A stretch of 64,000 bases of DNA from Promethearchaeota archaeon (GTDB lineage: Archaea > Asgardarchaeota > Lokiarchaeia > Sigyniarchaeales > SOKP01). The translations under genes and the position numbers were made by a program. This document shows, piece after piece, positions 28,090 through 63,967 of the stretch (positions within the stretch are counted from its first letter, which is position 1; each line of letters opens with the position of its first letter). Location of the stretch: assembly GCA_016840085.1 (NCBI GenBank), contig JAEOTA010000085.1:32001-96000 (forward strand), given 5' to 3'. Under the pieces are notes generated by a model, which worked only from the letters and a program-made list of their open reading frames with translations, searched no databases and had not been told where the DNA came from.

Positions 28090-29487
28090 ATGAATGGACC
28101 CCCCGAACCTTTTAAAATTAAGATGATTGAACATGTTGGAATGCCAGATCAAATAAGAAGAAGTGAAGCAATTAGAGAAGCTGGTTATAATACATTTCTA
28201 TTAAGATCCGAGGATGTTTACATTGATCTCCTAACCGATTCTGGTACATCCGCCATGTCAGATTATCAATGGAGTGGTCTTCTTTTAGGTGATGAAGCCT
28301 ATGCTGGAGCCCGAAATTTTTATAATCTCGAAAAAGCAATACAGGATGTACTTGGTTATAAATATATCGTTCCAACTCACCAGGGTCGTGGTGCTGAGCA
28401 TCTTATGTATAGTTACCTCGTAAAATCAGGTCAGCTTGTTCCAAGAAATATGTATTTTACTACTTCAAAACTCCATGTTGAGCTTCCTGGTGGAAAAATG
28501 GTTGATGTCATCATTGATGAGGCACATGATCCAGAAAATTTACATCTATTTAAGGGTAATATAGATTTCAAAAAATTACAAGCATTTATTGATGAATATG
28601 GAGTAGAAAAAATCGCTTTTGTGAATGTTGAAATGGACGTGAATATGGCAGGAGGGCAACCTGTATCTATGCAAAATCTTCGTGATTTACGAGAATTTTG
28701 CAACGATTATAATTTGAAAATAATATATGATGCTACAAGATCGAGTGAAAATGCATATTTTATTCGAGAACGTGAAAGAGGTTATGAAAATACACCAATT
28801 ATAGATATTTTGAGAGAAATGATGAGTTATTCTGATGGATGTATTTATAGTTCAAAAAAGGACTGTCTAGTAAATATTGGTGGTTTTCTTGCCACAAGTG
28901 ATAAGGATATTTTTGAACATTGCCGTAATATGGTTGTTGTTTATGAGGGATTGCATACTTATGGAGGTATGGCGGGTCGAGATATGGAAGCTGTAGCAAG
29001 AGGATTAAAAGAAAGCACATCATATGAATATTTAAAGTATAGGATAAATCAAGTTCGCTATCTGGGCGATTTATTGATGAAAGCAGGAGTTCCTATCGTA
29101 AAACCTACAGGTGGGCACGGTGTATTTATAAATGCATTAAAATTTTTACCCCATCTTGAAAGAAAACAATGGCCCGCCCAAACCCTTGCTGCAGCCATTT
29201 ATGAAGACTCGGGCGTCAGAAGTATGGAACGAGGTGCAGTATCAAAAGGACGAGATAAAGAAACAGGGGAAAACATCTTTCCAGCATTAGAGCTCGTGAG
29301 ACTCACAATTCCTCGAAGAGTTTACACAAACACACATATGGAGTATACAGCGGAGTCAGTAATTCGCCTATATGAAAAGCGAGACTCTATCAGAGGTTTA
29401 AAGATGGTATATGAACCAGAATATCTCCGTTTTTTTCAATCTCGTTTTGAAGTCCTAGAGTCATCAAAGTCATACTTAGAGACATAA
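28090..29487 (+). CDS. tpl: Tyrosine phenol-lyase (beta-eliminating lyase)
   Basis: DLLTDSG, THQGRGAE, KKDCLVNIGG. Has TPL-type NMYFTT, GVRSMERG and LRFF rather than tryptophanase-type residues. Confidence 0.85.
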   Translation: MNGPPEPFKIKMIEHVGMPDQIRRSEAIREAGYNTFLLRSEDVYIDLLTDSGTSAMSDYQWSGLLLGDEAYAGARNFYNLEKAIQDVLGYKYIVPTHQGRGAEHLMYSYLVKSGQLVPRNMYFTTSKLHVELPGGKMVDVIIDEAHDPENLHLFKGNIDFKKLQAFIDEYGVEKIAFVNVEMDVNMAGGQPVSMQNLRDLREFCNDYNLKIIYDATRSSENAYFIRERERGYENTPIIDILREMMSYSDGCIYSSKKDCLVNIGGFLATSDKDIFEHCRNMVVVYEGLHTYGGMAGRDMEAVARGLKESTSYEYLKYRINQVRYLGDLLMKAGVPIVKPTGGHGVFINALKFLPHLERKQWPAQTLAAAIYEDSGVRSMERGAVSKGRDKETGENIFPALELVRLTIPRRVYTNTHMEYTAESVIRLYEKRDSIRGLKMVYEPEYLRFFQSRFEVLESSKSYLET

Positions 29488-29823
29488 CAATTGCGACTAT
29501 CAAACACAAATTTAGTAATTTTCTATATTTTTTCATACATTTACTCACTTTTGATTTCTTTAATTTTCGATTATTTTCAAAATGTTTATGATTAAAAAAA
29601 AAAAAATCACCTCTAATATTTAACATTTTTCTTAAGAGGGAAAATTAGATGCAGGAAATTAAGAAAATAAGCAAGAAAATGACTAAGATTTTATAATTTT
29701 AAGCTCTTTTAATTTATTGTTTATTGGAAATTTGTCGGGGTCCTGACTATTAATTTTCCGTGCAATTATCAGTGTAGTGAGAAGTCAAAAAGATACAGGG
29801 ATATACAACGTGGCTTTGGAATT

Positions 29824-30729
29824 GTGTTAGAGGGTATTGGAGAGAGACATAGTAATTATAACCAAATCTTATATAATGAATTATATTATGGGGATGTGGG
29901 GATTTATTTAGATAATTCAAATTATAATACCATTAAATATAATACTTTTTTTAAAAATCGAGTATTTATACAAGAAGAAAATAATTGTATAGGAAATATT
30001 ATTGAAGACAATTATTACGTAAAAAGAGCTTATTTTAATTGGTCTATTATAATTATAGCAGTAATAGTCTTAATAATCATATCTGTGTGTATTTTTTTAT
30101 ATTATAAATTAAAGAAGAAGAAAGCCTCTATGAAATCAGAAACTGAAGATGAAATAGCGGAGTCAGTCACTATCCAAAGTGAAACATTGATTTCTGAAGA
30201 AGAGCAGACTCCAAAGATATTTCCACATGAAATTGAACAAAAAGAGTCTCAAACTTCTATGGTTGAATCCATCTCTGTTGAAGATGATGTACCACCCCTT
30301 ATAGAGCAACTTCCTGAAATCAGTCCTGTAGATAAATTTAACATTTTTTTAAGCTATTCTACTTTAGATTCGCAGTATTTCCAAATAGAAAAGATTGTGG
30401 AGCTTCTGGAGCAATATCCCGAAATTGGTAAGATATATTATTGGGAAGCGGACAGTAAAGAAAATATCGTTGAATTTATGAATGAGACCTTAAAAAAAAT
30501 TAATGTATTTATTCTCCTCTGCAGTGAGAATTCACTCAAATCTAAAGCTGTGAATGACGAATGGCAAGCAGCGTTTCAGATGCGAAAAGAAGGATTATTA
30601 AAAATTATCCCTGTATATGAACAACAAGACCATATACCAAATATCTTATGGCATTTACTTAATGTAAAGTATACCAAAGACGACTTTAAAGGCTTTCTTG
30701 AGAACTTGCATCGTGAAATTTTGAGATAA
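29824..30729 (+). CDS. TIR-domain membrane protein (beta-helix remnant, TM, acidic linker, TIR); probably 5'-truncated
   Basis: NosD/PbH1-like GIYLDNSNYNTIKYNTF, a TM helix, then TIR-like IFLSYS...ILLCSENSLKSKAVNDEW...IIPV. Confidence 0.75.
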   Translation: MLEGIGERHSNYNQILYNELYYGDVGIYLDNSNYNTIKYNTFFKNRVFIQEENNCIGNIIEDNYYVKRAYFNWSIIIIAVIVLIIISVCIFLYYKLKKKKASMKSETEDEIAESVTIQSETLISEEEQTPKIFPHEIEQKESQTSMVESISVEDDVPPLIEQLPEISPVDKFNIFLSYSTLDSQYFQIEKIVELLEQYPEIGKIYYWEADSKENIVEFMNETLKKINVFILLCSENSLKSKAVNDEWQAAFQMRKEGLLKIIPVYEQQDHIPNILWHLLNVKYTKDDFKGFLENLHREILR

Positions 30730-30911
30730 TAGAGAGAAATATAAATAACAGATTCAACATACTCTTTCTATTTTTTTTTTAAATATGTACCTATTACTTT
30801 AGAGTAATAGAAAGAGCAGTAGTGAGAGCGAAGACAAATAGACGAAAATGTGTCTTACCTTATGATATTTGAAATATATGAAAAAAAGAAAATAAAGACA
30901 TAAGAATAATT

Positions 30912-31232
30912 ATGGGAGTAATTGATAATTATCTTAAATCAAAAGAAAAGAAGAAATACTATTGCTTAAGCTGTTTCCTGTATACCAAGAAAAGATATGT
31001 TCTCCATGTTCTTGAAGATGAGACAGGAAAGGTATATAAATGTCCAAATTGTCCACCATTAGAGCTCGTTAGACTCACAATTCCTCGAAGGGTCTATACT
31101 AACACACATTTGGAATATACGGCGGAATCAGTGATTCGCCTATATGAAAAACGGGACACTATTAGAGGGTTAAAAATGGTATATGAGCCCCAATATCTAC
31201 GGTTTTTTCAGGCGCGATTTGAAAAATTATAA
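30912..31232 (+). CDS. Chimeric ORF: CxxC..CxxC zinc finger fused in frame to a copy of the TPL C-terminus
   Basis: CLSC and CPNC, followed by LELVRLTIPRRVYTNTH...LRFFQARFEKL. Confidence 0.65.
   Translation: MGVIDNYLKSKEKKKYYCLSCFLYTKKRYVLHVLEDETGKVYKCPNCPPLELVRLTIPRRVYTNTHLEYTAESVIRLYEKRDTIRGLKMVYEPQYLRFFQARFEKL
31052..31223 (+). repeat. Diverged direct copy of the tpl 3' end (29280-29451)
   Basis: Ungapped alignment at offset 1772; differences are mostly synonymous. Confidence 0.95.
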
Positions 31233-31401
31233 AAAAGATAATTTTTAGAATAAATATCAGCCAAAAATAAAAAAGTTAGGGAAAGAGAATGGATGTTCCT
31301 GTTTTTTTCTTAGCAATCCATTGCCGCATTTCCTCATAACATTCCACGCAGTACTATGCGCCATCGCGTAGGTTGTACGTCATGTCTTGGTCTGATCTTG
31401 C

Positions 31402-32103
31402 TTATTCTCTAACCTTTTCTATGGATAAAATAACTCTTTTTAATTCCCAATTAGGATCTCTCTTACCAGGAAATTCCAAAATCTCCTTACATTGTAAACC
31501 CAAATTTTCTAAAAGTCCATTCCATTCTTGTACTGTTAAAACTTTTGAACTTTTTTCACCTTTATATTTCCTTCTGATTATTTTTTGAAAAATAAATCCG
31601 ATAATTTTTCCTATTTTTGTGCGCCATTTATCTGGGGCACATATATCTGCTATTACTAATCTTCCATTATTTTTTATGACTCTTTTAAACTCATTTAATG
31701 CTTTTTCAACCTTCATATGACGGATAGCAAAAGAGCTTATTATCAAATCAAATGAACTATCACTAAAAGGAATATTTTCTCCATTTCCCTTTTCTGTAAT
31801 AATAAAGTTTTCAAAACCTTGCTCTTTTATATTTTTTTTAGCAATCGCAATCATTTCATCCACGGGTTCAAGAGCAATTATCTTAAAGTTATTAGATATC
31901 TTTTTTGCAAGAGCTAAAGAAGTGAGTCCTGTTCCTGCTCCTACATCTAATATTCTAATATCGGGTTTTAATTCACATAATTTTATAAAAGATTTCATAA
32001 AATCTTCATAATTAATACCTGATCTCTCAAACATCCTTAACTTATCATCCTCATAAGAAAGAGCCCATTTTTTATATTGTTCTTCAATTTTTTTTTCTTT
32101 CAT
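31402..32103 (-). CDS. Class I SAM-dependent methyltransferase (UbiE/Methyltransf_11-like)
   Basis: ILDVGAGTG, IPFSDSSFD, EFKRVIKNNG. Confidence 0.9.
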   Translation of the reverse strand: MKEKKIEEQYKKWALSYEDDKLRMFERSGINYEDFMKSFIKLCELKPDIRILDVGAGTGLTSLALAKKISNNFKIIALEPVDEMIAIAKKNIKEQGFENFIITEKGNGENIPFSDSSFDLIISSFAIRHMKVEKALNEFKRVIKNNGRLVIADICAPDKWRTKIGKIIGFIFQKIIRRKYKGEKSSKVLTVQEWNGLLENLGLQCKEILEFPGKRDPNWELKRVILSIEKVRE

Positions 32104-32113
32104 TTTTTCATCT

Positions 32114-32459
32114 CTAATTTGGTTTTTCTACAATGAAATGTCCAAGCGCGTTTTTATACTTATAATTTAATTTAACAAAACCTGATTTTCTCAACAGATT
32201 TATACATTTTTTCTTAGATAAAAATTTCCATGATAAGAGAGGGCATGGAATAATCGTTCCAACAGTTCGCAATGGTTCTATTGATAGAAATTTACCTCTT
32301 GGACGAAGCACTCTAAAAACTTCTGACAAGTATTTTTATACCTCCTAACTTTAAGAAAAATAAAATAATTAGTATTCCCAAAATAACATCTATACTAATA
32401 ATAAGATGAAAGTATCCAAATCCATAATATCCATAAAATGGTTTTTCTGATTTATTCAT
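32114..32459 (-). pseudogene. Internally deleted membrane-anchored methyltransferase
   Basis: An ATG at 32459 opens MNKSEKPFYG... plus a TM helix, joined out of frame to the methyltransferase tail EVFRVLRPRGKF. The SAM-binding core is missing. Confidence 0.55.
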
Positions 32460-32470
32460 AACCTCATGCC

Positions 32471-33034
32471 TTATAAAAAATCTTCAATGACTTTTCGATT
32501 TTCCACTTCTTCCTTAAGCTCTTGAAGCCATTTCAATTCTGCTTCCCAATGAGCATAGTGATGTTTAATAATATAAATTGCAAAAAAGGGGATTTTTCTC
32601 TTTAATGTATCTATAAGACCTTTATGTTCCTTATTTTTTTTTTGAATATACTGAATTCGTTTATCAATGGCTTCAATAATTTCACTCTTAGATAAAATGG
32701 GCATGAATAATAACCCTACATCAAGAGGATATCGTATTGGCTGGATTTCGAAAAAATTTTTTCGAATCATTACAATTAATTCTGTTTTTCCCTTCTCTGT
32801 TATATGATATAATGTTCTTTCTGGACGTTCACTATCTTTTTCCTTTCTACTACTTAATAAACCTTCTTTTTCCATTTTTTCTAAATTGTAGTAGAGAGAT
32901 CCATAAGAGATTTCCGTAAATTCGCCAATAGCCCATTGATTTATCACTTTTTTAATCTCATATCCATGAATGGGTTTAGGAAATTCAAATAAAATCCCTA
33001 ATAAAATCAATTTTGTAAGATTTTGAATTGCCAT
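32471..33034 (-). CDS. PadR-family transcriptional regulator
   Basis: HGYEIKK, GSLYYNLEKMEKEG, YHITEKG. Confidence 0.9.
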   Translation of the reverse strand: MAIQNLTKLILLGILFEFPKPIHGYEIKKVINQWAIGEFTEISYGSLYYNLEKMEKEGLLSSRKEKDSERPERTLYHITEKGKTELIVMIRKNFFEIQPIRYPLDVGLLFMPILSKSEIIEAIDKRIQYIQKKNKEHKGLIDTLKRKIPFFAIYIIKHHYAHWEAELKWLQELKEEVENRKVIEDFL

Positions 33035-33235
33035 TATTTTATTTTAGATAGAATATTCTATATAGACTATATCTTTTATTTAATTTAAAAATTTCTTTAA
33101 ATTGCTTTTGACCTTTTAATAGAGTTAAATATGAATTCCTCTAAAGAGTTGCAAGATTTGAACCGTTACCATTATGAATTAAAAAAAGTGGATTTCGATC
33201 TTACTTTTCATACAGGATTATTAAATGATTAAAAG

Positions 33236-33712
33236 TTAAAACCTTTTTTCAAGCACGATAATGATTGGTTGAAATCCTGCTTTAGCAAAAACATCAAGTA
33301 ATTTTTTATCTGTTTTATACGCAAGATTTATTCGAAGGGAGTCGCACCCCCATGACTCTAAAATTTGAGTAGCTTTATCCGCTAAGAGTTTTCCCACACC
33401 CTTACCAATAAATTCTTTTTTAGTGGCCCAATTATCAAGATATCCGATATATCGCCCAAGAGTATTCTTCACAGCTTCAATCATTCCCATACTTACCACT
33501 TGACCGGTAGATTTTAATTCTGCGATTAAGGTTATTCTTTTTAAATTGGGTTTAAATTGCCGAAGCCCACTAGACTCTCTCCATTGTTTTTCATCAAAAC
33601 CAATATCAAATAATTCATTAAGTTCTTTTAAAATTGCTAAAGTCGCCTGATAATCTGAAGTACGATAATTTCTAATTACAATATCTTCTTGTTTAATTTC
33701 TTCCTCTAACAT
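33236..33712 (-). CDS. GNAT-family N-acetyltransferase
   Basis: EFIGKGVGKLL motif A and GF near the C-terminus. Confidence 0.8.
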   Translation of the reverse strand: MLEEEIKQEDIVIRNYRTSDYQATLAILKELNELFDIGFDEKQWRESSGLRQFKPNLKRITLIAELKSTGQVVSMGMIEAVKNTLGRYIGYLDNWATKKEFIGKGVGKLLADKATQILESWGCDSLRINLAYKTDKKLLDVFAKAGFQPIIIVLEKRF

Positions 33713-33725
33713 TTTTATACAACAA

Positions 33726-34784
33726 TTAACTTGTAATTTTTTTTATTAATTTTAAATCAATTCTTTGTGTAAGAATTTTTTCTCTATCTCCCCCATCATC
33801 TAATTGACGAATAGAGAATAAATATTCGTCAATATGAGGAACAATTGGGGAGATAAATAAAAGTTCCTCGTGGGGAAACCATATATCAACTTGTTGGGTC
33901 ATTACTTCTTTCTCAAAAAATTCTTTAACATGAGTAATTGTAATAGAGATATTGTTCAATTCCTCATCTGTATTATTTTGGACAGTTATTTCTATTTCTT
34001 GACTATTTTCAATAAAATAAATATTGTTAATTGATAGTGGAGTCGTGGTAGAAAGATCTACAGCAACCTGTTGTTTAGGATCAAATAAATCTACATTATA
34101 AAAAGTATTTTCCCCTTTAAGACTACTTAGAGGAGAAAACTCAAATCCTCTTATAGAGAAATAAGAAATAGCTTTTTGTGCTTTAAGAGAAGGAGCGTCT
34201 GATTTTTTTTCTATAACTTTTGAGAAATAATCTTTAATAGTATTATCAATTAATTCTCTCAAAAATAATTTTATTTTATTTCCTTCAGATATTAACTCTT
34301 GTATTTTAGGTGTTTTAATAACATTTTCAGATGCAATTTCACTTACAATAACTTCAGATAATTGATCTTCAAATTTAGCTCGTATATTATTAGTTAGAAT
34401 ACGTATCAAATCATCCCCAAAAATATCTATCTCAATAGGTAAAGATACTATAAGTACTATAGTTTCAGGAGTTTCTTCTTTAAGTCCTGCTCTCCTCTTT
34501 TTCCTTTCTGATTTTGCTAAGAATTTTTTACCAAAAAAGGTGTAACCCTTATATTCTAAATCAATATGGTCTAAATCATCAGTTTCTAAAAACCACACAG
34601 GATGATAATGGATCGGACGCATATATTTTTTATTACTTCTGAGTCTATCATCAGGATACATTAACAGTGGAATTTGCCCCTTTTTTTCATCAAAATACAA
34701 CACATATACAACGCATAAATCTTCATTAGGGTTTTTTTCCACTGATGCGTTGTTAAATACGTCTGCCACTTGAAACCATTCCAA
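33726..34784 (-). CDS. uDENN/longin-like domain protein with C-terminal beta-sandwich
   Basis: VLYFDEKKGQIPLLMYP resembles the FD..xG.....YP signature of uDENN/longin domains. Confidence 0.6.
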   Translation of the reverse strand: MEWFQVADVFNNASVEKNPNEDLCVVYVLYFDEKKGQIPLLMYPDDRLRSNKKYMRPIHYHPVWFLETDDLDHIDLEYKGYTFFGKKFLAKSERKKRRAGLKEETPETIVLIVSLPIEIDIFGDDLIRILTNNIRAKFEDQLSEVIVSEIASENVIKTPKIQELISEGNKIKLFLRELIDNTIKDYFSKVIEKKSDAPSLKAQKAISYFSIRGFEFSPLSSLKGENTFYNVDLFDPKQQVAVDLSTTTPLSINNIYFIENSQEIEITVQNNTDEELNNISITITHVKEFFEKEVMTQQVDIWFPHEELLFISPIVPHIDEYLFSIRQLDDGGDREKILTQRIDLKLIKKITS

Positions 34785-34904
34785 GAAGTAATTTTAAAAA
34801 TACAAATGATTCTTTTTTCAAAAGAATTAAATAATCCTTATTCTAAAAATTTAACTATAAAAAAATTAAAATAAATAGTAAAATTCTGTTTGTTGATGTG
34901 TAAA

Positions 34905-35987: not shown

Positions 35988-35991
35988 AAGA

Positions 35992-37356: not shown

Positions 37357-37506
37357 TTTTTGAGTCAGTCTTTTCTACTTATTTTAAGTGATTTGGTTAG
37401 GATCTTTCGAATAATATTATTTGAATTTCATTTTATTTATAATAATGTTTATTTTCATTACAAAAAGATGAGTCTAATATTAGAAAAAGAACGAAATTGA
37501 TATTTA

Positions 37507-41791: not shown

Positions 41792-42034
41792 ATGAAGCCT
41801 CCTATATATTGCATATGTGATGAAAAATTAAAAGATATGAATGACGGTGGTTTGATAGATTTTAAGAAACGGCTTTCTGATATTGAATGGGAAAAACATA
41901 TGGAAAAAATTAAAGGTGTTGGACATCCTCCATATGCGGAATGGTTCTGTAAAAAACATTATGATAAAGCAAGTGAATTAAAACACTTACCTATTGACAA
42001 AGCTTTAAAAATTTTAATGTCTGAAGGAACTTAA
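41792..42034 (+). CDS. Small putative zinc-binding protein
   Basis: CICD...FCKKH; 80 aa. Confidence 0.65.
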   Translation: MKPPIYCICDEKLKDMNDGGLIDFKKRLSDIEWEKHMEKIKGVGHPPYAEWFCKKHYDKASELKHLPIDKALKILMSEGT

Positions 42035-42109
42035 TTCTTTAATTTGGTTAGTAAACTCTGTAATTATCTCAGCAAATCTCTTCCCTTCAGATCCGCTAAT
42101 TCATTCTAA
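42015..42109 (-). repeat. Decayed copy of the mvhD 3' end (43028-43122)
   Basis: Ungapped alignment at offset 1013. Translates [30 protein letters not shown]. Confidence 0.92.
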
Positions 42110-42162: not shown

Positions 42163-42696
42163 TTATAATTTTAAATCCTTAGCTTTTTCCAATAAAATGG
42201 TATAGTACTTTTTTTCCATCCATAAACCCATCTCAATCATTTTATCAAGTAATTCATGGAATTCTTTATAATTTTTCAAGATTCTTTTTTCAAGAGCTTC
42301 TAAGAGAATTTCAGTGCTCCATTTCGTATTGATACTTTTTGATTCAGCAATTAACCTGGCTCTCTTATCGTTTACAAGTAATAAGTCAGCATTTAGCTCT
42401 AAACATAGAGCTATGGCATATGCCTCTCCGCGCCCTAATTATTTTGTAAGATTTAAAGCAATTTCATGAGATTTATCTGATTCCGGGTCTTTAACGATAA
42501 GCCATCCTTCTTCTTTAGCATTTAATTCATATTTTATATCTTGTGGGATTTCCTCATCTAGTTTAGAAAATGGATGTATTAATTCTTCCCAAACAGCATT
42601 ATGAATGAATACTGTCGAATATAATTCTTTTAATAGAAATAATTTCTCAATTTTAGCAAAAAATATTAAAGGAGAGGTATCAGAAATAACTATCAT
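42163..42696 (-). pseudogene. DUF3368/PIN (VapC-like) toxin with internal TAA at 42439-42441
   Basis: MIVISDTSPLI start; the frame resumes LGRGEAYAIAL...NDKRAR after the TAA. Confidence 0.85.
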
Positions 42697-42707
42697 ATAA
42701 ATCAGTT

Positions 42708-42944
42708 TTATATATGAACAGGTATTCTGGCTTTTGTACGAATCAATTCTAACTCTCGATATGAAATTCGTGCTATTTCAGAAGCTTTACCAAATGATAT
42801 ATCTCCTCGCATATATAATTCTAAAGCATCTTGAATAGCCTCTGGAAGTGATCTTATATATTCCCAATCTATAGGTTTAATTAAATCCTTTTGATTGAAC
42901 CAATATTGACTTAAATCACTGTTCTGTACCATATTATATCTCAT
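42708..42944 (-). CDS. UPF0175-like antitoxin
   Basis: ALELYMRGDISFGKASEIA; directly upstream of the PIN gene. Confidence 0.75.
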   Translation of the reverse strand: MRYNMVQNSDLSQYWFNQKDLIKPIDWEYIRSLPEAIQDALELYMRGDISFGKASEIARISYRELELIRTKARIPVHI

Positions 42945-43002: not shown

Positions 43003-43473
43003 TTAACTGTTATCTTCTATACTCTTATAATGTCTGAAGGGACCTAATTCTTTAATTTGGTTAGTAAATTCTGTGATTACTTCAGCAAATCTCTTTCCTT
43101 CAGATGCACTGACCCATTCTAAACGCACCCTTTTTGGATCTACTCCTAATTGTTTAATCAGAATATTATGTAATCTCTCGAATCGTTCCTGTGTATATTC
43201 ATTTCCAGTAATATAATGACAATCTCCAATATGACATCCACTTACTAGAACTCCATCAGCGCCATTTTTTAAAGCTTTTAGGACAAATGATGGATCTACT
43301 CTTCCAGAGCACATTACCCTAATGATTCGAATATTCGGAGGGTATTGAAACCGTGAGACTCCTGCTAAATCTGCTCCTGCATAACTGCACCAGTTACAAC
43401 AAAAAACTAAAATATGAGGTTCGAATTCTTCTTTTTTTACTTTTTTTCTTGATCGTGACATTTTCTTATTCAC
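43003..43473 (-). CDS. mvhD: MvhD/FlpD iron-sulfur subunit (Cys form)
   Basis: [35 protein letters not shown]. Confidence 0.95.
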
Positions 43474-56433: not shown

Positions 56434-56440
56434 TTCCTTA

Positions 56441-57550
56441 TTACAAGTTTTTCATGAATTCATTTCTTCGCTCTATTTTAGCTTCAGAAAATTTGGCTAT
56501 TAAGCTTTTCATCTCTTTTTTTGTATTTTCATCAAGTTCTAAACTTTTAATAATATTTTTGTCTAATGCCTTTTGGAGTAACTGCACACCTTTTTCAGTT
56601 CGGGGTAATACAGTAGTATATTTATCTCGGGATCCAAGCCCACCAAACGAAATATCTGAATATATATTGGTAAAATCTATACAAGAATGGCAAGCTGGGC
56701 GTATATAATTAACCAATTTAGTAAAAGGAATATGGATTATCTTTTCTTTTGAGTCATTATCTTCTAGCTTTAGAATTAAATCCTCCTTAATGTTAATTTT
56801 TACTATATCTTCGAATTTTAACTTAAAATCCTTTTCAAATTTCGCGATTTGAGATTTTTCAAATAGAAAATTGTGATAACAAAATAAGCCTAGAGTAATC
56901 TCAACATGTTCTGAAGGGGTAACACCTAAATCTTGCATACATTTAATCGTATAAATTTGACAGGGTGTTCCCACAATTGCTAACTTTTTGAATTTATAAT
57001 GACTCAATTGAGGAATTGAGCGTGTGTAGGTGTTAAACTTTTGTATTTCATCTACTTGTGGAGATATATTCAAAATTGTACCAGATGCTTTGATTAGGTC
57101 GTCTTTAGTTTCTGCAAACATTGATTCTCTGGAAAATGGACCTTCAACTTTAGAGACTATTGCCCCATCAATAACTTTAGTTTCTAATAAGAAGTTTAAA
57201 AGTGTATTTACCACACCTCCATCTGTCCCATGTTTTAGAAATTCTTCGTCTGTAGTTTGACAAGAATAGATATCTTCAGCAAATCCATAAGGCATTGAAG
57301 TAAAATCAGTGAATTGGTAAGTCTTATTAAGGTCATCATCTAATACATGTGTTTGAGGACACAGGAAATAACATATACCGCACTCGAGGCATGCATCCTT
57401 ATTTATATATTCAGGAGGGGAGTTAGGCTCTTTAAAGCCGATTACATTCTCGAATGCTGCCGAACAGAAAGAAGTACATCCTCCACATTCTTGGCAGATC
57501 CCCTTTTCATGAACTTCCTTAATTAAATCTTGAAAGGTTTTTATACTCAT
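56441..57550 (-). CDS. FrhB/FdhB-family F420-binding protein with ferredoxin domain
   Basis: CQECGGC, DGGVV, VGTPCQ, GLFC, CHSCIDF..DISFG. Start placed at MSIKTF. Confidence 0.88.
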   Translation of the reverse strand: MSIKTFQDLIKEVHEKGICQECGGCTSFCSAAFENVIGFKEPNSPPEYINKDACLECGICYFLCPQTHVLDDDLNKTYQFTDFTSMPYGFAEDIYSCQTTDEEFLKHGTDGGVVNTLLNFLLETKVIDGAIVSKVEGPFSRESMFAETKDDLIKASGTILNISPQVDEIQKFNTYTRSIPQLSHYKFKKLAIVGTPCQIYTIKCMQDLGVTPSEHVEITLGLFCYHNFLFEKSQIAKFEKDFKLKFEDIVKINIKEDLILKLEDNDSKEKIIHIPFTKLVNYIRPACHSCIDFTNIYSDISFGGLGSRDKYTTVLPRTEKGVQLLQKALDKNIIKSLELDENTKKEMKSLIAKFSEAKIERRNEFMKNL

Positions 57551-57566
57551 AATAATACTTTTTACA

Positions 57567-59063
57567 TTATTCCTTTTCCAATTTGATTGGTTTACAATTT
57601 TTTCTTTTAATACCAGCAATCCTTTCTAATAAGGGTTGCCCAGGTTTAACCGCCTTTAAGCTTTTGGATTCTATAAATCCTGTTTTAATAGCTCCTTTAA
57701 AAATTTCTTCCCCTTTCTTATTTCGAGTGATAACAGAAGACCATCCACTCCCAGAACCAATTGAACCAATTGAGATGTCAGCATAATCTGCTGTTAAATC
57801 TTCACAATAATGGCAGTTATTGCGAGCATAAGATTTAACATCTTTAAGCGGAACTTTTAAATCTTCTCCGGTATCCAAATATATGATAAATTCACCACCA
57901 CTAATGTCCATCTTTGTTACTTTATTAAAATCTTGGTTAAATTGCTCTTTAATTAATCCAAGGACTCCTTCATAAGGAAAAGATTCCATGCAAAAAAGTC
58001 CTATTTTATATTTTATATTCTTGAAAAAAGGTACTCCACTTGGAAAAAGATTACCCTTTTCAATAGCATTCATCATACATGGAGTACCTACAACAGCTAT
58101 ATTGTCATATTTCTTGGCTTTATCGATAATAGCTAAAGTAGATGCGTTTGCATATTTAGTTCCCCCCGTCTTATATAGATCTTTCAAATTATCCACGATG
58201 ACGGGTTCAGGCTTCCATTTCTCTTCTGAGTGCTGTACTGCTACAATCGCATCGACTAATTTATTCTTAAGTAAGTATTCAAGTAAAGAAGTAACAATCC
58301 CCCCATCTTGTCGTACTTTTTTAATATCATCCTTAGTGGTGCTGGCAGAATAGGTATTGATATAACCATTAATTTTTTCTGAAAATTTTAAAGAATTATC
58401 TCGCTTATTTATACTCTTACCCGCTTGTTCAATTGAAAATGATCTCGGGCAAACAGAATAACATAAACCGCATTTCATACAAGTTTCATCATCGATCTCT
58501 AAAGTATCTGCTGTTACTGTAAGAGCATTTACTGGGCAAATTGATGAGCACCAACCACATTGACAGCATACTTCAGAATCAAACACGATTGAAACAGGTT
58601 CAAAAAAATGTTCAATAAAATCATCAGGTATATCTTTAACTTGATATCTATAGAAAAATTCTTTTTCCTCAATTTCTTTTTCTTCTCCTTTTACTTTCTT
58701 AATAACCTTTTTAATTTTAATCTCTATTTCTTCTTCAATATAACCTTGTTCTTTTAGATAAATTATATCTCGTATTACATTTTCTGGTGGAAAATTGTCT
58801 ATAATTTTCACAATTTCTTCCAGAAATAATAGTTCTTTACCTTTTAGTTCTTCTAATACTAACTTGCGTTCTGTTTCGGCATCAACCATAGCATCTAAAA
58901 TCTGATAAAATTCTTCCTCTGAATATTTTCCTGCTCCTAAGATTTCTTCTTTTGCTTCAAAAAAAGCACGAACCTGAAAATTTTCTGCCGCTTTATGTGT
59001 TGCTTCCATTAATAATTTAGGGGATATCCCATTAAAGGTTATATCTTTTTCTATTTGAACCAT
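57567..59063 (-). CDS. FrhB/FdhB-family F420-binding protein with N-terminal extension
   Basis: CCQCGWC, QDGGIVT, GTKY, VGTPC, GLFCME, CHYCEDLTADYADISIG. Confidence 0.9.
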   Translation of the reverse strand: MVQIEKDITFNGISPKLLMEATHKAAENFQVRAFFEAKEEILGAGKYSEEEFYQILDAMVDAETERKLVLEELKGKELLFLEEIVKIIDNFPPENVIRDIIYLKEQGYIEEEIEIKIKKVIKKVKGEEKEIEEKEFFYRYQVKDIPDDFIEHFFEPVSIVFDSEVCCQCGWCSSICPVNALTVTADTLEIDDETCMKCGLCYSVCPRSFSIEQAGKSINKRDNSLKFSEKINGYINTYSASTTKDDIKKVRQDGGIVTSLLEYLLKNKLVDAIVAVQHSEEKWKPEPVIVDNLKDLYKTGGTKYANASTLAIIDKAKKYDNIAVVGTPCMMNAIEKGNLFPSGVPFFKNIKYKIGLFCMESFPYEGVLGLIKEQFNQDFNKVTKMDISGGEFIIYLDTGEDLKVPLKDVKSYARNNCHYCEDLTADYADISIGSIGSGSGWSSVITRNKKGEEIFKGAIKTGFIESKSLKAVKPGQPLLERIAGIKRKNCKPIKLEKE

Positions 59064-59115
59064 AATTCTTATTTAATTTATTTTTTATTCAAAAAAATTA
59101 ATTTAATATTTTAAA

Positions 59116-59183
59116 ACCCCTTCCCTTGCGAGGAGAATCTTCTTATAACTAATATTTTTTTATAAGAATCATTCCAAAGGGGT
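59116..59183 (-). promoter_or_regulatory. Eukaryote-like SECIS element
   Basis: mRNA reads ACCCCUU..GGA-AUGA-UUCUUAUAA-[AAAAAUAUUAG]-UUAUAAGAA-GA-UUC...AAGGGGU: an AUGA/GA core, a perfect 9-bp stem, an A-rich loop and a 7-bp outer helix. Confidence 0.8.
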
Positions 59184-59630
59184 AGTTAAGAGTTCCTTCA
59201 TTTCAACTTCTGCTTCTTCTTCACCGATGTTAAGAGGACTTGGCCCTATTCTGCGAATTTTTTCAAAGGAATCTTCAACGCTTTTTACTAATTTTTCTGA
59301 TTCTGCACTTGAGCACCAGTACATATTAATCCGCTCACTTCCAAATCCTCGTCTATCAAGAATTCTTTTAGCAAAGTCTATGTGTTTTGAGGCTGTAAAA
59401 TTACCTTCTTTAAATTGACATTCATTTTCACGTCATCCAACAACCATGACGCCGTCAGCTCCGCTTTTTATAGCATATAATATATGCTTTACGTCAACTC
59501 GTCCTGTACACCTTACTTTAATGATCTTTACTGAGGGTGTATATTTTAAACGGGAAACTCCAGCTAAATCCGCTGCTCCATAGCCTCATTTTAAACAAGC
59601 AAACATTATTATCTTATAACTATTTTCCAC
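59169..59630 (-). CDS. mvhD: Selenoprotein MvhD/VhuD, 153 aa, two Sec
   Basis: GTG start after GGAGG. In-frame TGA at 59586-59588 (CLKU) and 59433-59435 (VVGU) align to Cys in both Cys paralogues. Not in the ORF track. Confidence 0.92.
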
Positions 59631-59652
59631 CTTTTTTCAACCTCCTCTAAGT

Positions 59653-61599
59653 TTAAGTCTCTAATAATGCAGAGATCTCCGAATATAGTTGATCATCTCG
59701 GAAATATTTAATATCTATAGCTTCTGTAGGACAACAACTAGCACATATACCACAGCCATCGCAGTTTAGATCATCAACAATAGCACTTTCTGCCTCCTCA
59801 TCAATAATAATCGCGTTCTTTGGACATTCCTTTTCACATCTTCTGCAGGATATACAAAAATCCTTGTTGACTTCTGCAATTATAAGTTCAAGATCAATCT
59901 CTCCAGCAGATGTTAATTCAGCTACTTTACTGGCAGCTGCTCTGGCTTGTGAAACAGAATATGCTATATTTTTTGGACCTTGAGCAAATCCAGCAATAAA
60001 AATACCTCTGGTCTTAGTTTCTTGGGGCATCAATCCAAAATGAGATTCTGTAAGAAAGCCATTTCGATCTATGTCCAAATTCAAAATTTTCGCAATTTGT
60101 TGTGTTCCTTCTGAGGGTAAAGCAGCACTTGATAAAACAACTAAATCAGCATCAATTATTACAATCTTATCTGTTAATGTTGAATAAACCCGAACTTTCG
60201 CTTTTTTGGTCTCAGGATCTTCAGTGATCTCGCCAACTTTTCCTCGAATCATTCTAATCCCCGCATCTTTCGCCTTCTCATAATACTCTTCGAAACCTTT
60301 TTCGTTTGTTCTGATATCTATATAACAAATTGTGATACTTGCATCAGGAAATTCTTCTAAAAGTAATTGTCCATTCTTAAGAGCTAACATGCAACAAACA
60401 CCGCTACAATATGGTCTGTCAGTTTCTCTAGATCCGACGCACTGAATAAACACAATTTCTTTTGGTTTTTTATCATCCGAAATTCGATGTACATGTCCTT
60501 CTAATGGTCCATTAGGAGCTAAAATTCTCTCAAGTTGAGCTTGAGTAATTACATTTTCAAATTCACCATAACCATATTCCCCAAAAGGTTCATAGATATC
60601 CCATCCAGTGGCGATAATTATTGTACCGACATCAAAATTAACTTCTTTTGGAACTTGGCTAAAGTCTATGGCATCTAATTCACATGCATCAACACAAGAA
60701 AAACATTCAACACACACATCTCTATTGATATCATAAATAAAGGGTACTGCTTGTCCAAATGCTATATCAATCGCTTTTCGAGCACCCAAATATGCATCAA
60801 AATAGTTGGTTATATAAGTTGGACAGACTTCTGTACAAGCTCCACAACCATTACATAATTTAGGATCAACGAATCGCGGTTTCATCTCAACAGTAACATT
60901 ATACTTTCCTACATTTCCTGTAATTTCCTTTACTTCAGTATAACTTAAAATCTCAATATTTTCATTCCGATTAACCTCCAACATCTTTGGACCACAAATT
61001 CATATAGCACAATCATTTGTAGGGAATGTTCTATCTAGTTGAGCCATTCTCCCTCCTATAGTAGTATTTTTTTCTACTAAATATACTTTAATTCCTTGAT
61101 TGGCGAGATCGAGAGCAGCATTCATACCTGCAATTCCACCTCCTACTACTAATGTAGCTTTTGTAACTGGTACTGTTTTTATAGGTATAACTTCTAATCG
61201 CTTTGCCCTCTCAATACCAGCTTTCACTAAAATTTTCGCCTTTTCTAGAGCCTCTTCTTTACTTTCAGTACACCAACTACAATGTTCCCTCACATTTACC
61301 ATTTGAAAATAGTAAGGGCTTAAACCTGCTTTTGCTAGTGAATCTCGATAAATTGGTTCGTGAGTTCTTGGAGTTCAAGCACTTGCAACAATTCGATTTA
61401 AATTCTTTTCTTTAATATCTTCTATTATTTCATTCTGTGCGGCATCAGTACATAGAAAAGCATTTTTCTTTGAAATTATTATACTTTCGTCAAGATCTTT
61501 TACATACTCTACTAATTTATTGCAATCGACTTTGCTATTAATATTTATGCCTCAGTGACATGCATAGAATCCAATCCTATGATTTTGGTTATTATTCAT
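59653..61599 (-). CDS. hdrA: Selenoprotein HdrA, 648 aa, three Sec
   Basis: ATG at 61599 after GAGGTG. In-frame TGA at 61552-61554 (CHU), 61375-61377 (ASAUTPRTHE) and 61000-61002 (DCAIU). Joins two track ORFs. Confidence 0.92.
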
Positions 61600-61984
61600 G
61601 TATTTTTACACATCCACCTCTTTTTTATACAAGATTGTATAATTTTTAACAATTTTCTGAATTTAATAATTCCTTTTTTAGATTCTATTCTTTTTTAACA
61701 TTTTTAATTCTTTCTATTTATCAATGTAATCGATTTTTAGGATAGTGATAGTGGGGATATATCATTTTTGCTCTAATTAGGGTTTTTGGAGGGTTATATG
61801 ATGGAGAATGAAAGTATTATTTAGGTGGATGATCAATTTCCTACATTTTTATTTTAAATATTAACGTTAGTTTTTACAAATATGGAAGATATCTACAAAA
61901 TAATCTTCGCAAAATGGAGTAGCAAAATGTAGGGTTTAATCTATTAATTATTTTATAAGTTTAGGAGAAGAAATTTTTGATAAA

Positions 61985-62152
61985 TCAATAATATGGCCTC
62001 ATTTTTGAAGAATTCATGGTATTAAGATATCCTCTATAGTAGTCCGATTTATTAAGGAGATATTTCCGAAGGATTGGTCTGAACATCATTATAAAGAGAC
62101 GTGAAACGGCTACTTTTTTTCTAACTTTACTAAAATAGTCATCAAGTGTGTG
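61985..62152 (-). repeat. Orphan diverged copy of the 3' end of the epimerase gene (~62991-63122)
   Basis: HTLDDYFSKVRKKVAVSRLFIMMFRPILRKYLLNKSDYY vs YTLNDYFNDVRKKVAISRFFTMMFRPIARKYLLNKSHYY at offset 972. An in-frame stop lies just upstream. Confidence 0.92.
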
Positions 62153-62239
62153 AAATAAAGAATCTGCTTGTTTTTATTCAATCTCATCAAAAGAATTAAA
62201 AATAAAAAAAAATTGAAAATTTATTGTTTTTTGCTGGAA

Positions 62240-62572
62240 TTAACTTTCAGGAAGTTCCATACCTAACGCTTCAAATGCTTCTTGATAAGTTCCCCAAACT
62301 TCAACAGATGTTTCAAAACCCTCGATTTCTGAGAAATAAACCATTTCTTTATTAACCATCTTCAGTGCTTCCTCAAGTTTTCCTTCTTTTACACGTGTAA
62401 CACTTAAAGCTCTTAAACCATCTTCAGTAGATTTCCAAGCTGATAGTACAAGAGTTTCTTGTATAGATTCATCATCAGGAAACAAATTTTTTTGCACAGA
62501 TTCAAGAGCTTTTTGTACAACTTCCCTTACAATGTGAGTGGGGTATTTCATAAACATGACTATATGTGGCAT
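62240..62572 (-). CDS. Hypothetical protein
   Basis: 110 aa ORF with a GAGGGT RBS-like motif upstream. Confidence 0.75.
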   Translation of the reverse strand: MPHIVMFMKYPTHIVREVVQKALESVQKNLFPDDESIQETLVLSAWKSTEDGLRALSVTRVKEGKLEEALKMVNKEMVYFSEIEGFETSVEVWGTYQEAFEALGMELPES

Positions 62573-62959
62573 AATTTTACCCTCTTATATATATAAAATT
62601 TTATCCAATCAAATTGGATTCTATTGTGCATTATTTCTAATCTTTAAAAATTTTTACATTTTTATCAAAGTAACTAGAGACGAGAAGGAGTATGTTCATG
62701 AGCAGATCTTGTACAAAATATCAAGAAAATAAAAAAAATATGTTAGTTAAGATTTCGATACTTTTTTCTGATTAATAAAATCGATGCTAATCCAATACCG
62801 CTGAATAAAAAGTACATTTGATACCATGAATCACAGATGAAGATAAGTTAAAAAGAAATAATAGAACATGCCCTAAATGCGGCTCGTCAATAATTTTAGC
62901 TAATAATTATTATAGATGGACATGTGTAAAATGTGGTTTAAATATCTTTAAAAGAAATT

Positions 62960-63967
62960 TTAATTTTTAATCTTAGATTCAGGATGATGGCTATTTAGAT
63001 ATTCTTTGTAATAATGAGATTTATTTAGTAAGTATTTCCGAGCTATTGGCCTAAACATCATTGTAAAGAAGCGTGAAATAGCTACTTTTTTCCTGACGTC
63101 ATTAAAATAATCATTAAGAGTATATCTTTGATAATTCAGAAGGAATTGACTTTTATATGTTGTCATAAACCCACAATGAAATCCCTTTTTACTAAATGCT
63201 TCTTTAGGTAAAACCTCAGTACCAATACCAAAAATATCCATCATTTCATTAAGATATTCCCGATAAGAAATTCGACATCGTTCTCCACCCGCAATATGTA
63301 AGATTTCTCCCCATATTTCATTCGTTTCCACTGCGTTAGCTAATGCATACCCCACATCTTTAGTATCACAAATTTCAATACACGTATCTAAGGGCATTTC
63401 AAACATAAGTGGATCCATTTGAAGCTTATTAATAGATACAATATACGTTAAACGGAAAATAGCCCACTTTAATCCTGAATTTCTAATAATTTCTTCACAC
63501 TTTACTTTTTGTTTCGCATACTCATCATCTGGATTTGGGTTAGGAAGATCTGTGGGGCTTATTAAAGGGTTTTCTAACCTATCTCCATATATTGCTACTG
63601 AAGAGGTAAAGATGATTTTTGGTTTTTGCGGTTGATTCTGCATTGCTTCAATAATATTTGAGGTTCCTCCAACATTAATTGATTCAGCAAATTTTGGCTT
63701 CTTATCAGCAAGTGGAGGTATAATTGCTGCTGTATGGATAATTACATCTCGCCCTGATACTGCTTTTTCTACTTCCTTATAATTCCGTATATCTCCCCAG
63801 CATAATTCTACTTGATCTTTATACTTATTAGCAATTCTACGGTTTTTTTTAGTTTTTATATCTAAAACTTTGATATCATGATTTCTTTTAAGTAATTCTT
63901 GTAATGTACTCAACCCAACATTTCCAAATGGACCTGTTAATAATACTTTCACCATATTTAACCTCAA
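62960..63967 (-). CDS. NAD-dependent epimerase/dehydratase (extended SDR)
   Basis: TGPFGNVG, HTAA, TSS, YAKQK. Confidence 0.9.
   Translation of the reverse strand: MRLNMVKVLLTGPFGNVGLSTLQELLKRNHDIKVLDIKTKKNRRIANKYKDQVELCWGDIRNYKEVEKAVSGRDVIIHTAAIIPPLADKKPKFAESINVGGTSNIIEAMQNQPQKPKIIFTSSVAIYGDRLENPLISPTDLPNPNPDDEYAKQKVKCEEIIRNSGLKWAIFRLTYIVSINKLQMDPLMFEMPLDTCIEICDTKDVGYALANAVETNEIWGEILHIAGGERCRISYREYLNEMMDIFGIGTEVLPKEAFSKKGFHCGFMTTYKSQFLLNYQRYTLNDYFNDVRKKVAISRFFTMMFRPIARKYLLNKSHYYKEYLNSHHPESKIKN

Follow-up and report, generated by a model that had tools for sequence, protein, structure and literature searches.

The e14 and phage 21 elements in icd of E. coli are integrase islands inserted at the 3′ end of a protein gene, and they bring a substitute for that end. 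They leave a hybrid gene end, then cargo, then the stranded original end, and this is also the order of parts in the archaeal genome described here, where about 25 loci have an ordinary gene, then one or a few genes, then a leftover copy of the last 40 to 430 bases of the gene. The e14 and phage 21 insertions, however, are defined by their integrase and by a fixed crossover core, and neither was found at our loci.

Homology-facilitated illegitimate recombination (HFIR) is said to come from laboratory transformation of naturally competent bacteria, in the work of de Vries and Wackernagel in 2002, Prudhomme et al. in 2002, and Meier and Wackernagel in 2003, which PMC5361080 and PMC2884548 cite. 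In outline, one crossover takes place in a homologous anchor, the second joint lacks homology (0 to 8 nt of microhomology), and the process depends on RecA/RadA and on the uptake of foreign DNA. The likeness to that outline lies in the one homologous anchor, the one probable illegitimate joint, the gain of foreign DNA beside a conserved gene, the related donor lineage, and scars that have no recombinase of their own. The process so outlined was defined in the laboratory, whereas here we infer it across the genome of an Asgard archaeon from the scars left there; a further difference from the outline is that the illegitimate joint would fall within the anchor gene, with a second copy of the native end as the outcome and not its loss. 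We know of no DNA-uptake route in this Asgard archaeon.

Insertion with long target duplication (Nobusato et al. 2000; Furuta et al. 2010, PMC2853133) was described for bacterial restriction-modification genes, with repeats 94% to 100% identical. The criteria of PMC2853133 are an insert below 20 kb and direct repeats over 30 bp that both align to one copy in the empty genome, and no archaeal case passed that screen. Its cassettes, like ours, have no mobility genes, and its repeats, variable at 30 to 420 bp, overlap gene 3′ ends in several cases (PMC2853133). Here, too, both repeats match one copy in relatives with an empty site, at mvhD, C85, C4, C40b, and C83. The differences are that our repeats are 77% to 95% identical with a synonymous pattern pointing to two lineages, and that the cargo is diverse, with no restriction-modification genes in Pfam scans of the cargo proteins.

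C-terminal displacement at rhs, CDI, and T6SS effector-immunity loci (Jackson et al. 2009; Kirchberger et al. 2017, PMC5361080), for which HFIR has been proposed as the mechanism, likewise brings a new 3′ end with a downstream gene while the old end remains as an orphan, and repeated events there build arrays comparable to contig C73, which holds a stacked array of gene-end scars. Those loci encode polymorphic toxins with functionally differing tips, paired with immunity genes and under diversifying selection, whereas the parents here are ordinary enzymes (lyase, MvhD, epimerase, SAHH) whose old and new ends differ little as peptides. Events of this type are already known as HFIR, long target duplication, and C-terminal displacement; the present cases are genome-wide, at ordinary genes, and in an archaeon.

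Three loci in the window

The window is a stretch of 64,000 nt from a Lokiarchaeia genome (contig JAEOTA010000085.1 of assembly GCA_016840085.1). A preliminary description of it held that three of its genes are each followed by a small cargo and an orphan copy of the gene's own 3′ end. A repeat search recovers all three copies downstream on the same strand, at 85%, 87%, and 77% identity. The features are as follows.

28090–29487, + strand: parent gene 1, a beta-eliminating lyase of the tyrosine phenol-lyase/tryptophanase type (tpl), 465 aa (ORF; Pfam PF01212, E = 2.6e-73)
29280–29451, + strand: in-gene 3′-end copy of tpl, gene nt 1191–1362 (repeat family D1; 82.6% to relative G024, 84.9% to the orphan)
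29824–30729, + strand: cargo 1, a membrane (TM) protein of 301 aa with a TIR domain at the C-terminus (Pfam TIR_2, E = 2.8e-14)
31052–31232, + strand: orphan 3′ end of tpl, stop codon included, fused in frame to a 47-aa CxxC...CxxC leader (ORF 30912–31232)
43003–43473, − strand: parent gene 2, MvhD/FlpD, 156 aa, downstream of hdrA (Pfam PF02662, E = 3.8e-58)
43025–43122, − strand: in-gene 3′-end copy of mvhD (repeat family D4; 85–93% to 19 relatives)
42163–42944, − strand: cargo 2, a toxin-antitoxin module (UPF0175 antitoxin 42708–42944; PIN-like toxin broken into 42439–42696 and 42163–42279)
42012–42109, − strand: orphan 3′ end of mvhD, joined to the ancestral downstream region, ORF 41792–42034 (repeat search; 76–85% to relatives)
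62960–63967, − strand: parent gene 3, an NAD-dependent epimerase/dehydratase, 335 aa (Pfam PF01370, E = 8.6e-21)
62992–63121, − strand: in-gene 3′-end copy of the epimerase (repeat family D3; 72–81% to relatives)
62240–62572, − strand: cargo 3, a 110-aa protein (ORF; no Pfam family match)
62020–62149, − strand: orphan 3′ end of the epimerase (repeat search; tblastn 73% over 45 aa)

The tpl pair (29280–29451 and 31052–31223) covers 172 nt at 85% with a spacing of 1772. By codon position its differences are 5:0:21, that is, 21 of 26 at the third position (pN 0.04, pS 0.52), and the description of these copies as differing mainly at synonymous sites was correct. Among 90 tpl genes, the nearest match of the orphan is the in-gene copy. 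The first 1000 nt of the gene are 89–90% identical to G024, and from about nt 1000 the identity falls to 77–79%. The orphan, at 77%, is less like G024 than the in-gene end at 83%, which agrees with the model that we prefer below only if the end of the G024 gene has also been replaced. In at least 8 metagenome contigs the ancestral neighbor directly adjoins tpl, and two metagenome contigs (L085 and L123) have weak relatives of the TIR protein downstream of tpl.

The mvhD pair (43025–43122 and 42012–42109) covers 98 nt at 87%, with a spacing of 1013 and differences of 4:1:6. The nearest relative changes near 43300–43400, within mvhD, from G005/G054-like on the hdrA side to G024-like. At a different locus, G054 has an unbroken pair (74 + 177 aa) to which cargo 2 is 80% identical in DNA; the UPF0175 match of cargo 2 is under the Pfam gathering cut-off (E = 7e-5; 22.9 versus 27.9 bits). 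In six relatives (G005, G046, G042, G003, G024, and G004) the site is empty, with the downstream region directly 3′ of mvhD.

The epimerase pair (62992–63121 and 62020–62149) covers 130 nt at 77%, with a spacing of 972 and differences of 7:5:18. Its orphan, at 70–72% to relatives, has diverged further than the other two in the window and is probably also the oldest. Cargo 3 separates the epimerase gene from the hdrA upstream region in G044, G007, and, in part, G017, all of which lack the orphan; at this position in G024 and G002 it is missing.

Distribution in the genome

The source genome is metagenome-assembled (89 contigs, 7.6% estimated contamination), and the layout was read from the assembled contigs alone. 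To look for the same layout elsewhere, 4040 ORF products were searched by tblastn against their own 4.68-Mb genome. C-terminal fragments that are downstream and on the same strand number 23 (17 at 60% identity or higher), versus 0 to 7 in each other class; the 3′ type outnumbers its mirror 5′ type by 17 to 2 (binomial p = 7e-4). The three-locus observation is confirmed, as is a genome-wide pattern beyond chance, and the 3′/downstream bias that had been put forward for checking is present. The orphan ends lie 0.8–6.7 kb downstream of their parents, on the same strand. Cargo measures 0.8–6.5 kb and is of many kinds, ordinary metabolic genes among them. Co-orientation of the intervening genes, which the preliminary description made part of the architecture, holds for all three window cargos but for only about half of the loci genome-wide. 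Its suggestion of a process common in the lineage is borne out by the roughly 25 loci here and by more in relatives.

The excess of 3′ ends need not belong to the mechanism and may reflect selection against harmful 5′ scars. An orphan 3′ end with no promoter or start codon would be harmless, and 5′ scars would be selected against, leaving 3′ ends dominant.

Divergence of the two copies

Over 32 copy pairs the differences by codon position are 213:135:446, with pS of 0.2–0.8 and pN of 0–0.2. Identity between copies is 77–95% in DNA, and parent and orphan ends are 73–94% identical as protein. The longest exact matches in the window pairs are 20, 24, and 11 nt, and the range across copies is 11–49 nt. 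The distance from orphan to in-gene copy is as large as that to the allele of another species, and one copy of the pair is foreign. Because the differences are mostly at third positions, the copies diverged under purifying selection, as working genes in separate lineages, and not as local duplicates; the synonymous excess upholds the earlier idea that each orphan once served as the end of a functional gene, from a different allele. Near-identical pairs are few (C46 at 95%, C5 at 93%).

Imported and native parts

A further question is which of the two copies came in. At C85, where 5 relatives are without the cargo, the comparison with G024 gives 87.5% for the 5′ part of the gene, 86.7% for the orphan, and 87% for the flank after the orphan, but just 79% for the in-gene end. 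Scores against G024 at C40 are 90% for the in-gene end and 91% for the ABC-transporter cargo (against G054 the cargo scores 92.6%), versus 80% for the 5′ part of the gene and 70–81% for the flanks; the start of the orphan is 92% G041-like and runs on into G041-like DNA. C4 and C83 have an affinity pattern in the same direction. Judged by these affinities, the in-gene end and cargo are the imported block, and the orphan and downstream flank are native, at C85, C40, C4, C83, and mvhD. The comparison is ambiguous or tied at tpl, SAHH, the epimerase, C35, C40b, and C69. Empty sites in relatives, another check that had been proposed, turned up at mvhD, C85, C4, C40b, and C83. As to the proposed check whether the orphan is nearer to relatives' alleles than the in-gene end, the orphan is nearer to G024 at C85, and the in-gene end is nearer to G024 at tpl and mvhD.

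The switch of nearest relative falls inside the parent gene at three loci, C85, C40, and mvhD; tpl and SAHH show it less clearly. The first three switches support the earlier proposal that an exchange within a conserved gene gives it a new 3′ end and carries the neighbors in, although affinity switches within genes may be unrelated events, given frequent recombination among congeneric species. Imported sequence begins 0–300 nt before the start of the duplication at C85, C40, tpl, and mvhD, and up to about 600 nt before it at SAHH. No near-identical donor was found among the relatives compared.

Junctions and recombination genes

Pfam scans of 30 cargo proteins from about 25 cargos found no integrase or transposase. 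The tyrosine recombinase family (PF00589) has just 2 matches in the genome: the nearest, which is broken, lies about 29 kb from a locus, and the other lies about 140 kb from any. The integrase-free route first suggested is therefore kept. No Ku gene was found in the genome. Orphan boundaries differ among genomes, starting at aa 298, 373, 377, 398, 401, 402, 422, and 431 for tpl and at nt 946, 1006, 1012, and 1085 for SAHH. At none of the junctions does the end of the cargo show homology to the parent gene. Only the C40 junction can be pinned, and then to about 6 nt and not to the single base, with a possible TATA(C) overlap that is not significant at 70% A+T.

Proposed mechanism and alternatives

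We think it probable, though well short of certain, that each unit of gene, cargo, and orphan is the scar of one HFIR event between species of one genus, or of one-sided break repair. The incoming fragment would consist of the 3′ part of a conserved gene and the donor's downstream gene or genes. Its homologous part would pair with and cross over in the resident gene, which would then end in donor sequence, and its non-homologous far end would be joined illegitimately, with at most a few bases of microhomology, within the resident gene's own 3′ region. The native end would be kept, displaced downstream as a silent orphan with its native flank still attached. A gene break, one-sided invasion of a foreign template, and then end joining could give the same product. 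We infer the enzymology and the entry of DNA into the cell. A stronger version, that the scars record a dedicated or strongly favored pathway of Lokiarchaeia, such as break repair routinely copying foreign templates or an unrecognized trans-acting factor targeting gene ends, seems to us unlikely; if true, one-sided 3′-end capture would be a main way for the archaeal relatives of eukaryotes to gain genes, and one that could be quantified.

An identical product structure would come from the mirror polarity, in which the gene and cargo are resident and the orphan and downstream DNA are imported by a crossover in the downstream flank, with the illegitimate joint in the donor's gene copy at the left end of the fragment. 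The nearness of the in-gene end to G024 at tpl and mvhD speaks for it, as do the C40 gene and ABC cargo common to G024 and G000, and the epimerase gene and cargo present with no orphan in three relatives. We nevertheless think it unlikely, since at C85, C4, and C83 the orphan and flank match the affinity of the gene 5′ part or upstream flank and the in-gene end does not, two events would be needed at C85 with its cargo missing in 5 relatives, and the C40 in-gene end and cargo form one block at 90–93% against flanks of 70–81%. The preliminary description had offered, besides HFIR, the integration of a small circle (Campbell-type), carrying a gene-end fragment and cargo, through a single homologous crossover, with exit by way of the repeats possible. 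Such a circle yields the layout with no integrase, direct repeats of 100–400 nt could regenerate circles, and the stacked C73 array would suit it. But it predicts no donor sequence upstream of the duplication, and at C40, tpl, and mvhD the switch comes 120–300 nt before it, at SAHH earlier still; it predicts a donor-type orphan start, and the first 60–150 nt are native-type (92–94%) at C85 and C40; and no cargo module with an identical junction was found in two genomes. With imported sequence already present ahead of the duplication, small-circle integration is disfavored and we rate it very unlikely, and of the two mechanisms only HFIR is retained.

The topology also resembles attL/attR, with a new gene end supplied by an element and the old one stranded, so an island that has lost its integrase, with a replacement gene end in its attP, or a recombinase acting in trans, has to be weighed. 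That is a thin prospect given 8 orphan starts at tpl and 4 at SAHH across genomes, about 25 cargos with no integrase and both PF00589 matches at least about 29 kb from the loci, cargo of merely 0.8–6.5 kb, and donor-type sequence upstream of the repeat, which site-specific exchange is not expected to leave. Local events within the genome, either tandem duplication and decay or replication template switching that copies the cargo and re-enters upstream, do produce direct repeats flanking an insert and could still explain the near-identical pairs at C46 and C5. For the diverged pairs this reading is largely refuted, as the third-position excess is far over the roughly 1:1:1.7 expected for neutral drift of an orphan after local duplication, another species' allele is no farther from the in-gene copy than the orphan is, and some cargo is 90–93% identical to another species' copy amid flanks of 70–81%; overall we give it a very slim chance. 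A chimeric strain join might be suspected in a metagenome-assembled genome of 89 contigs with 7.6% estimated contamination, but it is scarcely credible here: the copies share exact words of just 11–49 nt, and the cargo/orphan junction, having no sequence in common with the parent gene, offers nothing to mis-join, so a de Bruijn mis-join cannot produce the layout. The layout also recurs in independent assemblies, namely JGI contig L060, the genomes G054, G014, and G024, and a single-contig relative with 2 cases in 761 kb.

Three genes with downstream copies of their 3' ends

The preliminary description had placed in the window three copies of gene ends stranded downstream of their parent genes, and all three repeat pairs are recovered at the positions claimed. 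The second copy of each pair lies downstream of the parent gene on the same strand, with cargo between the two; we call it the orphan, and the matching stretch of the intact gene the in-gene end. The homology begins abruptly within the gene and ends at the stop codon or a few bases past it.

Parent genes and repeat pairs (window coordinates)
28090-29487, +, beta-eliminating lyase (tpl), long ORF with its 3' end as one repeat copy
29280-29451 and 31052-31223, +, tpl repeat pair, 172 nt, 85% identity
43003-43473, -, MvhD, long ORF with its 3' end as one repeat copy
43025-43122 and 42012-42109, -, mvhD repeat pair, 98 nt, 87% identity
62960-63967, -, NAD-epimerase, long ORF with its 3' end as one repeat copy
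62992-63121 and 62020-62149, -, epimerase repeat pair, 130 nt, 77% identity

The cargo is a membrane TIR-domain protein at tpl, a UPF0175/PIN-like toxin-antitoxin pair with a broken toxin at mvhD, and a 110-aa protein without a Pfam family at the epimerase. The broken toxin (42163-42696, -) is in 2 pieces of 85 and 38 aa beside an intact antitoxin, and its homologue in the relative G054 is unbroken at 177 aa. The G054 toxin-antitoxin locus shares the module but was rejected as donor of the mvhD cargo: its neighbor is a glycyl-radical enzyme gene, and it carries no repeat. A 47-aa leader precedes the tpl orphan in the same reading frame, and the fusion makes a 106-aa ORF (30912-31232, +) that a gene caller would annotate as a protein; the leader has 2 CxxC pairs, resembles a zinc ribbon, and may be a truncated final cargo gene. 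A 71-aa ORF (32114-32329, -) reads like a methyltransferase C-terminal piece and sits just upstream of an intact methyltransferase gene (31402-32103), whose end it does not resemble. It looks like a further gene remnant in the variable stretch between tpl and 33236.

Number and bias of orphan ends in the genome

The genome under study (G000) has 4.68 Mb in 89 contigs with 29.5% G+C, and the window corresponds to C82:32001-96000 in it. The products of 4040 long ORFs were compared with it by tblastn, and short fragments within 6 kb of their own gene were kept. Fragments that are C-terminal, downstream, and on the same strand number 23 (17 at 60% identity or more), and the remaining classes by part, side, and strand have 0 to 7 each. 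The proposed 3' bias is thus borne out, at 17 against 2 for the N-terminal upstream mirror class (p = 7e-4), or 17 against 4 even if start-codon errors have hidden N-terminal fragments among the internal ones. Nucleotide self-comparison adds about 9 shorter cases, for a total of about 25 loci with repeats of 40-430 nt at 72-95% identity and cargo of 0.8-6.5 kb. This number and the repeated targeting of the same genes in relatives agree with the suggestion that the process is common in the lineage. The count is a lower bound on such insertions, because a joint beyond the stop codon leaves no repeat. The 3' bias may stem from selection. Neither a promoter nor a start codon accompanies an orphan 3' end, while a stranded 5' end would yield a truncated protein or cut a gene off from its promoter, and such scars may therefore be selected against.

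Pfam scans of 30 cargo proteins found TIR, 4 toxin-antitoxin modules, 2 ABC transporters, an aldehyde:ferredoxin oxidoreductase with an Fe-alcohol dehydrogenase, phosphoglycerate dehydrogenase, 2 DUF4238 proteins, a Ras-like GTPase, a C25 peptidase, RibD_C, FMN reductase, URO-D, a LAGLIDADG_3 protein, and several proteins without a family. The LAGLIDADG_3 protein (471 aa, L023:2317-3732, -, which is G000:C19:67016-68431) is the sole homing-endonuclease-like cargo. The loci had been described as free of integrases, and indeed none of the 30 proteins is an integrase or transposase; the entire genome has only 2 tyrosine-recombinase hits, one of them broken and about 29 kb from its closest locus, the other about 140 kb from any locus. 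Co-orientation of cargo with the parent gene, also noted earlier, holds at the 3 window loci but not genome-wide, where about half the cargo genes run opposite to the parent. Contig C73 carries a stacked array (G000:C73:1-6285, equal to L027) downstream of a 104-aa gene (453-767), in the order PIN_2/antitoxin pair, orphan 2000-2073, 2 genes, orphan 3982-4101, a second antitoxin/PIN pair, and orphan 5020-5095; it looks like sequential displacement.

Empty sites and repeated targets in relatives

A comparison with relatives finds empty sites. In 6 congeneric genomes the sequence found after the orphan in the window comes immediately after mvhD, and both window copies align to the single 98-nt end there. 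The locus C85:89919-91391 is empty in 5 relatives. In many metagenome contigs tpl adjoins its ancestral convergent neighbor (the gene at window 33236-33712), in others 0.6-6.3 kb of unrelated DNA lies between them, and in contig L060 tpl is followed by 5.1 kb of cargo and a 477-nt orphan immediately beside the convergent neighbor. The epimerase site has 3 states: empty (G024, G002), gene and cargo without orphan (G044, G007, G017), and the full layout of the window. The parent gene at C46 was set aside, as it is itself accessory and its synteny is absent in 5 relatives.

The same genes are struck at different points. By genome, tpl orphans start at residues 298, 373, 377, 398, 401, 402, 422, or 431, and orphans of C19:37536-38804, provisionally labeled SAHH (adenosylhomocysteinase), start at nt 946, 1006, 1012, or 1085. 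G024 itself has an orphan of 206 nt at the C69 gene. Two relatives have only the tpl 3' part, as residues 218-457 (G006:C1:2614052-2614771) and 377-453 (G013:C42:17703-17936), with no complete gene found there by a tpl query; these may be orphan ends outliving the parent gene. Among 80 tpl loci in a metagenome scan, none is above 88% aa identity, so this set has no within-species empty site or donor for the tpl event of the window. The TIR-bearing contigs L085 and L123 are too distant to be donors of the tpl cargo, at 67-79% over short stretches.

Ancestry of the two copies

Over 32 pairs, differences at codon positions 1:2:3 are 213:135:446 (5:0:21 for tpl), with pS typically 0.3-0.8 and pN 0-0.2. 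A truncated orphan is not selectable for its protein, so a drifting local duplicate would show roughly 1:1:1.7; the bulk of the divergence is hence older than the juxtaposition. The distance from orphan to in-gene end is about that between alleles of other species in the genus. The idea that orphans are former working ends of a different allele fits both the third-position excess and this distance, and the 2 ends are, to judge from their divergence, alleles from different lineages.

As a marker of native DNA we use G024, the nearest relative over many stretches at 85-91% DNA identity, against about 75-80% for others.

DNA identity to G024 along 4 loci
C85: upstream 85%, gene 5' part 87.5%, in-gene end 79%, orphan 86.7%, post-orphan flank 87%
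C40 (36837-37784): upstream 70%, gene 5' part 80%, in-gene end 90%, ABC cargo 91%, orphan 83.5%, downstream gene 81%
C4: in-gene end 80%, orphan 85%, orphan flank 88-91%
C83: in-gene end 86%, orphan 90%

The first 150 nt of the C85 orphan are 92-94% identical to G024, and at C83 G054 matches the orphan at 94% and the in-gene end at 86%. The C40 cargo has a 92.6% match at another site in G054, and the C40 orphan begins with sequence that matches G041 at 92%; in G041 the gene runs directly into what in G000 is the post-orphan DNA. For mvhD, the closest relative changes from G005/G054-like (hdrA, 83-92%) to G024-like (87-92%) about 200-300 nt upstream of the repeat. At C85, C40, C4, C83, and mvhD, these affinities group the in-gene end with the cargo and tie the orphan to the native flank downstream. 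The test suggested earlier, whether the orphan is closer to relatives than the in-gene end, comes out positive for G024 at C85, C4, and C83, negative at tpl, and tied at C35, C40b, and C69. The tpl gene falls from 89-90% to 77-79% identity with G024 near nt 1000, and its repeat begins at nt 1191. The tpl orphan, however, reaches only 77% with G024, so the model holds there only if the end in G024 was also exchanged. Neither SAHH copy is G024-like, although the gene is clearly a mosaic (nt 1-400 G024-like, nt 700-1269 G041-like). The epimerase orphan, the most diverged of the 3, is at 70-72% to all relatives and is uninformative for polarity.

Mechanism

Imported tracts start upstream of the duplication, by 0-90 nt at C85, 120-240 at C40, about 190 at tpl, 200-300 at mvhD, and 300-600 at SAHH. 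Recombination within a conserved gene, replacing its 3' end and bringing in neighbors, was the route originally proposed, and the affinity switches at C85, C40, and mvhD support it. The steps would be a homologous crossover inside the resident gene and an illegitimate joint into its 3' region, that is, homology-facilitated illegitimate recombination (HFIR). An equivalent route would be repair of a break in the gene, in which a foreign template is invaded from one side and the ends are then joined; it is inseparable from HFIR because the product is identical. An HFIR-type mechanism is well supported in outline, more tentatively at the junctions. The sole pinned junction is at C40, where the G054 copy of the cargo leaves about 6 nt of leeway and a possible TATA(C) overlap, a weak signal at 70% A+T. 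No shared motif at cargo ends or orphan starts was found in 18 aligned junctions, and a genome search for a Ku gene, as a candidate joining enzyme, gave no hit.

Integration of a small circle, which had been offered as another route, is disfavored: a circle of the duplicated fragment plus cargo could bring no donor sequence upstream of the fragment, where such tracts are seen, and would leave donor sequence at the orphan start, which is native-type at C85 and C40. The upstream tracts also weigh against site-specific integration, as do the missing integrases and the orphan boundaries, which vary at the same gene and so imply that a fixed attachment site is absent; we disfavor it as well. Strain-chimeric joins in an assembly graph do not predict the layout, because the parent gene shares no sequence with the cargo/orphan junction. 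The exact words common to the 2 copies are only 11-49 nt (20, 24, and 11 nt in the window pairs), the same layout recurs in independent assemblies, and the same scan finds 2 classic cases in 761 kb of G006, a single-contig congeneric genome. The scars are real, occur throughout the genome, and record gene gain from sister species without an integrase.

Relation to known systems

The genomes of Asgard archaea are large and rich in genes, and they contain much DNA acquired horizontally. We know of no route of DNA uptake or integration in these archaea, and to our knowledge their described mobile elements (viruses, aloposons, integrase islands) fail to explain small scattered gene gains. Each scar marks an insertion point, an imported block, and a displaced native end, making a countable footprint from which population-level genomes could yield the rate of gene flow in this lineage, its donors, and the lengths of its tracts. 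Annotators should leave uncalled both the orphan ends and any short ORFs that arise from them.

Literature searches found no report of such scars in Asgard or other archaea. Aloposons (PMC8813620) are unrelated, being giant-gene elements at tRNA genes. HFIR was defined by laboratory work on competent bacteria. It has been put forward to explain E. coli dimorphic loci and rhs/T6SS displacement (PMC2884548, PMC5361080). "Insertion with long target duplication" was described for restriction-modification genes with 30-420-bp flanking repeats and without mobility genes, in a screen that no archaeal case passed (PMC2853133); the repeats there are near-identical, whereas ours are 72-95% identical. 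Our results show that such insertion and "C-terminal displacement" extend beyond restriction and toxin genes, and both look like visible cases of a general process.

Other observations

At G000:C37:29205-35532, the end of gene 30702-31826 and the start of gene 29205-30545 are copied about 4.7 kb upstream, which is another kind of local duplication, unlike the orphan 3' ends. Further direct repeat pairs lie at G000:C83:197572-198664, C35:89812-92530, C9:8989-16714, and C75:43452-49696, of 100-210 nt at 86-90% identity and 1-7.5 kb apart. With no ORF of at least 80 aa beneath either copy, they may be the ends of either small genes or RNA genes.

An HdrA paralogue (window 59653-61302, -) is split into 2 ORFs by a single in-frame TGA at 61000-61002. 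A selenoprotein HdrA family has already been reported in Lokiarchaeota. Reading the TGA as selenocysteine gives TFPTNDCAIUICGPKMLEV, in which the U aligns with a Cys in the corresponding 19 residues of the neighboring paralogue, and the gene probably encodes a selenoprotein HdrA.
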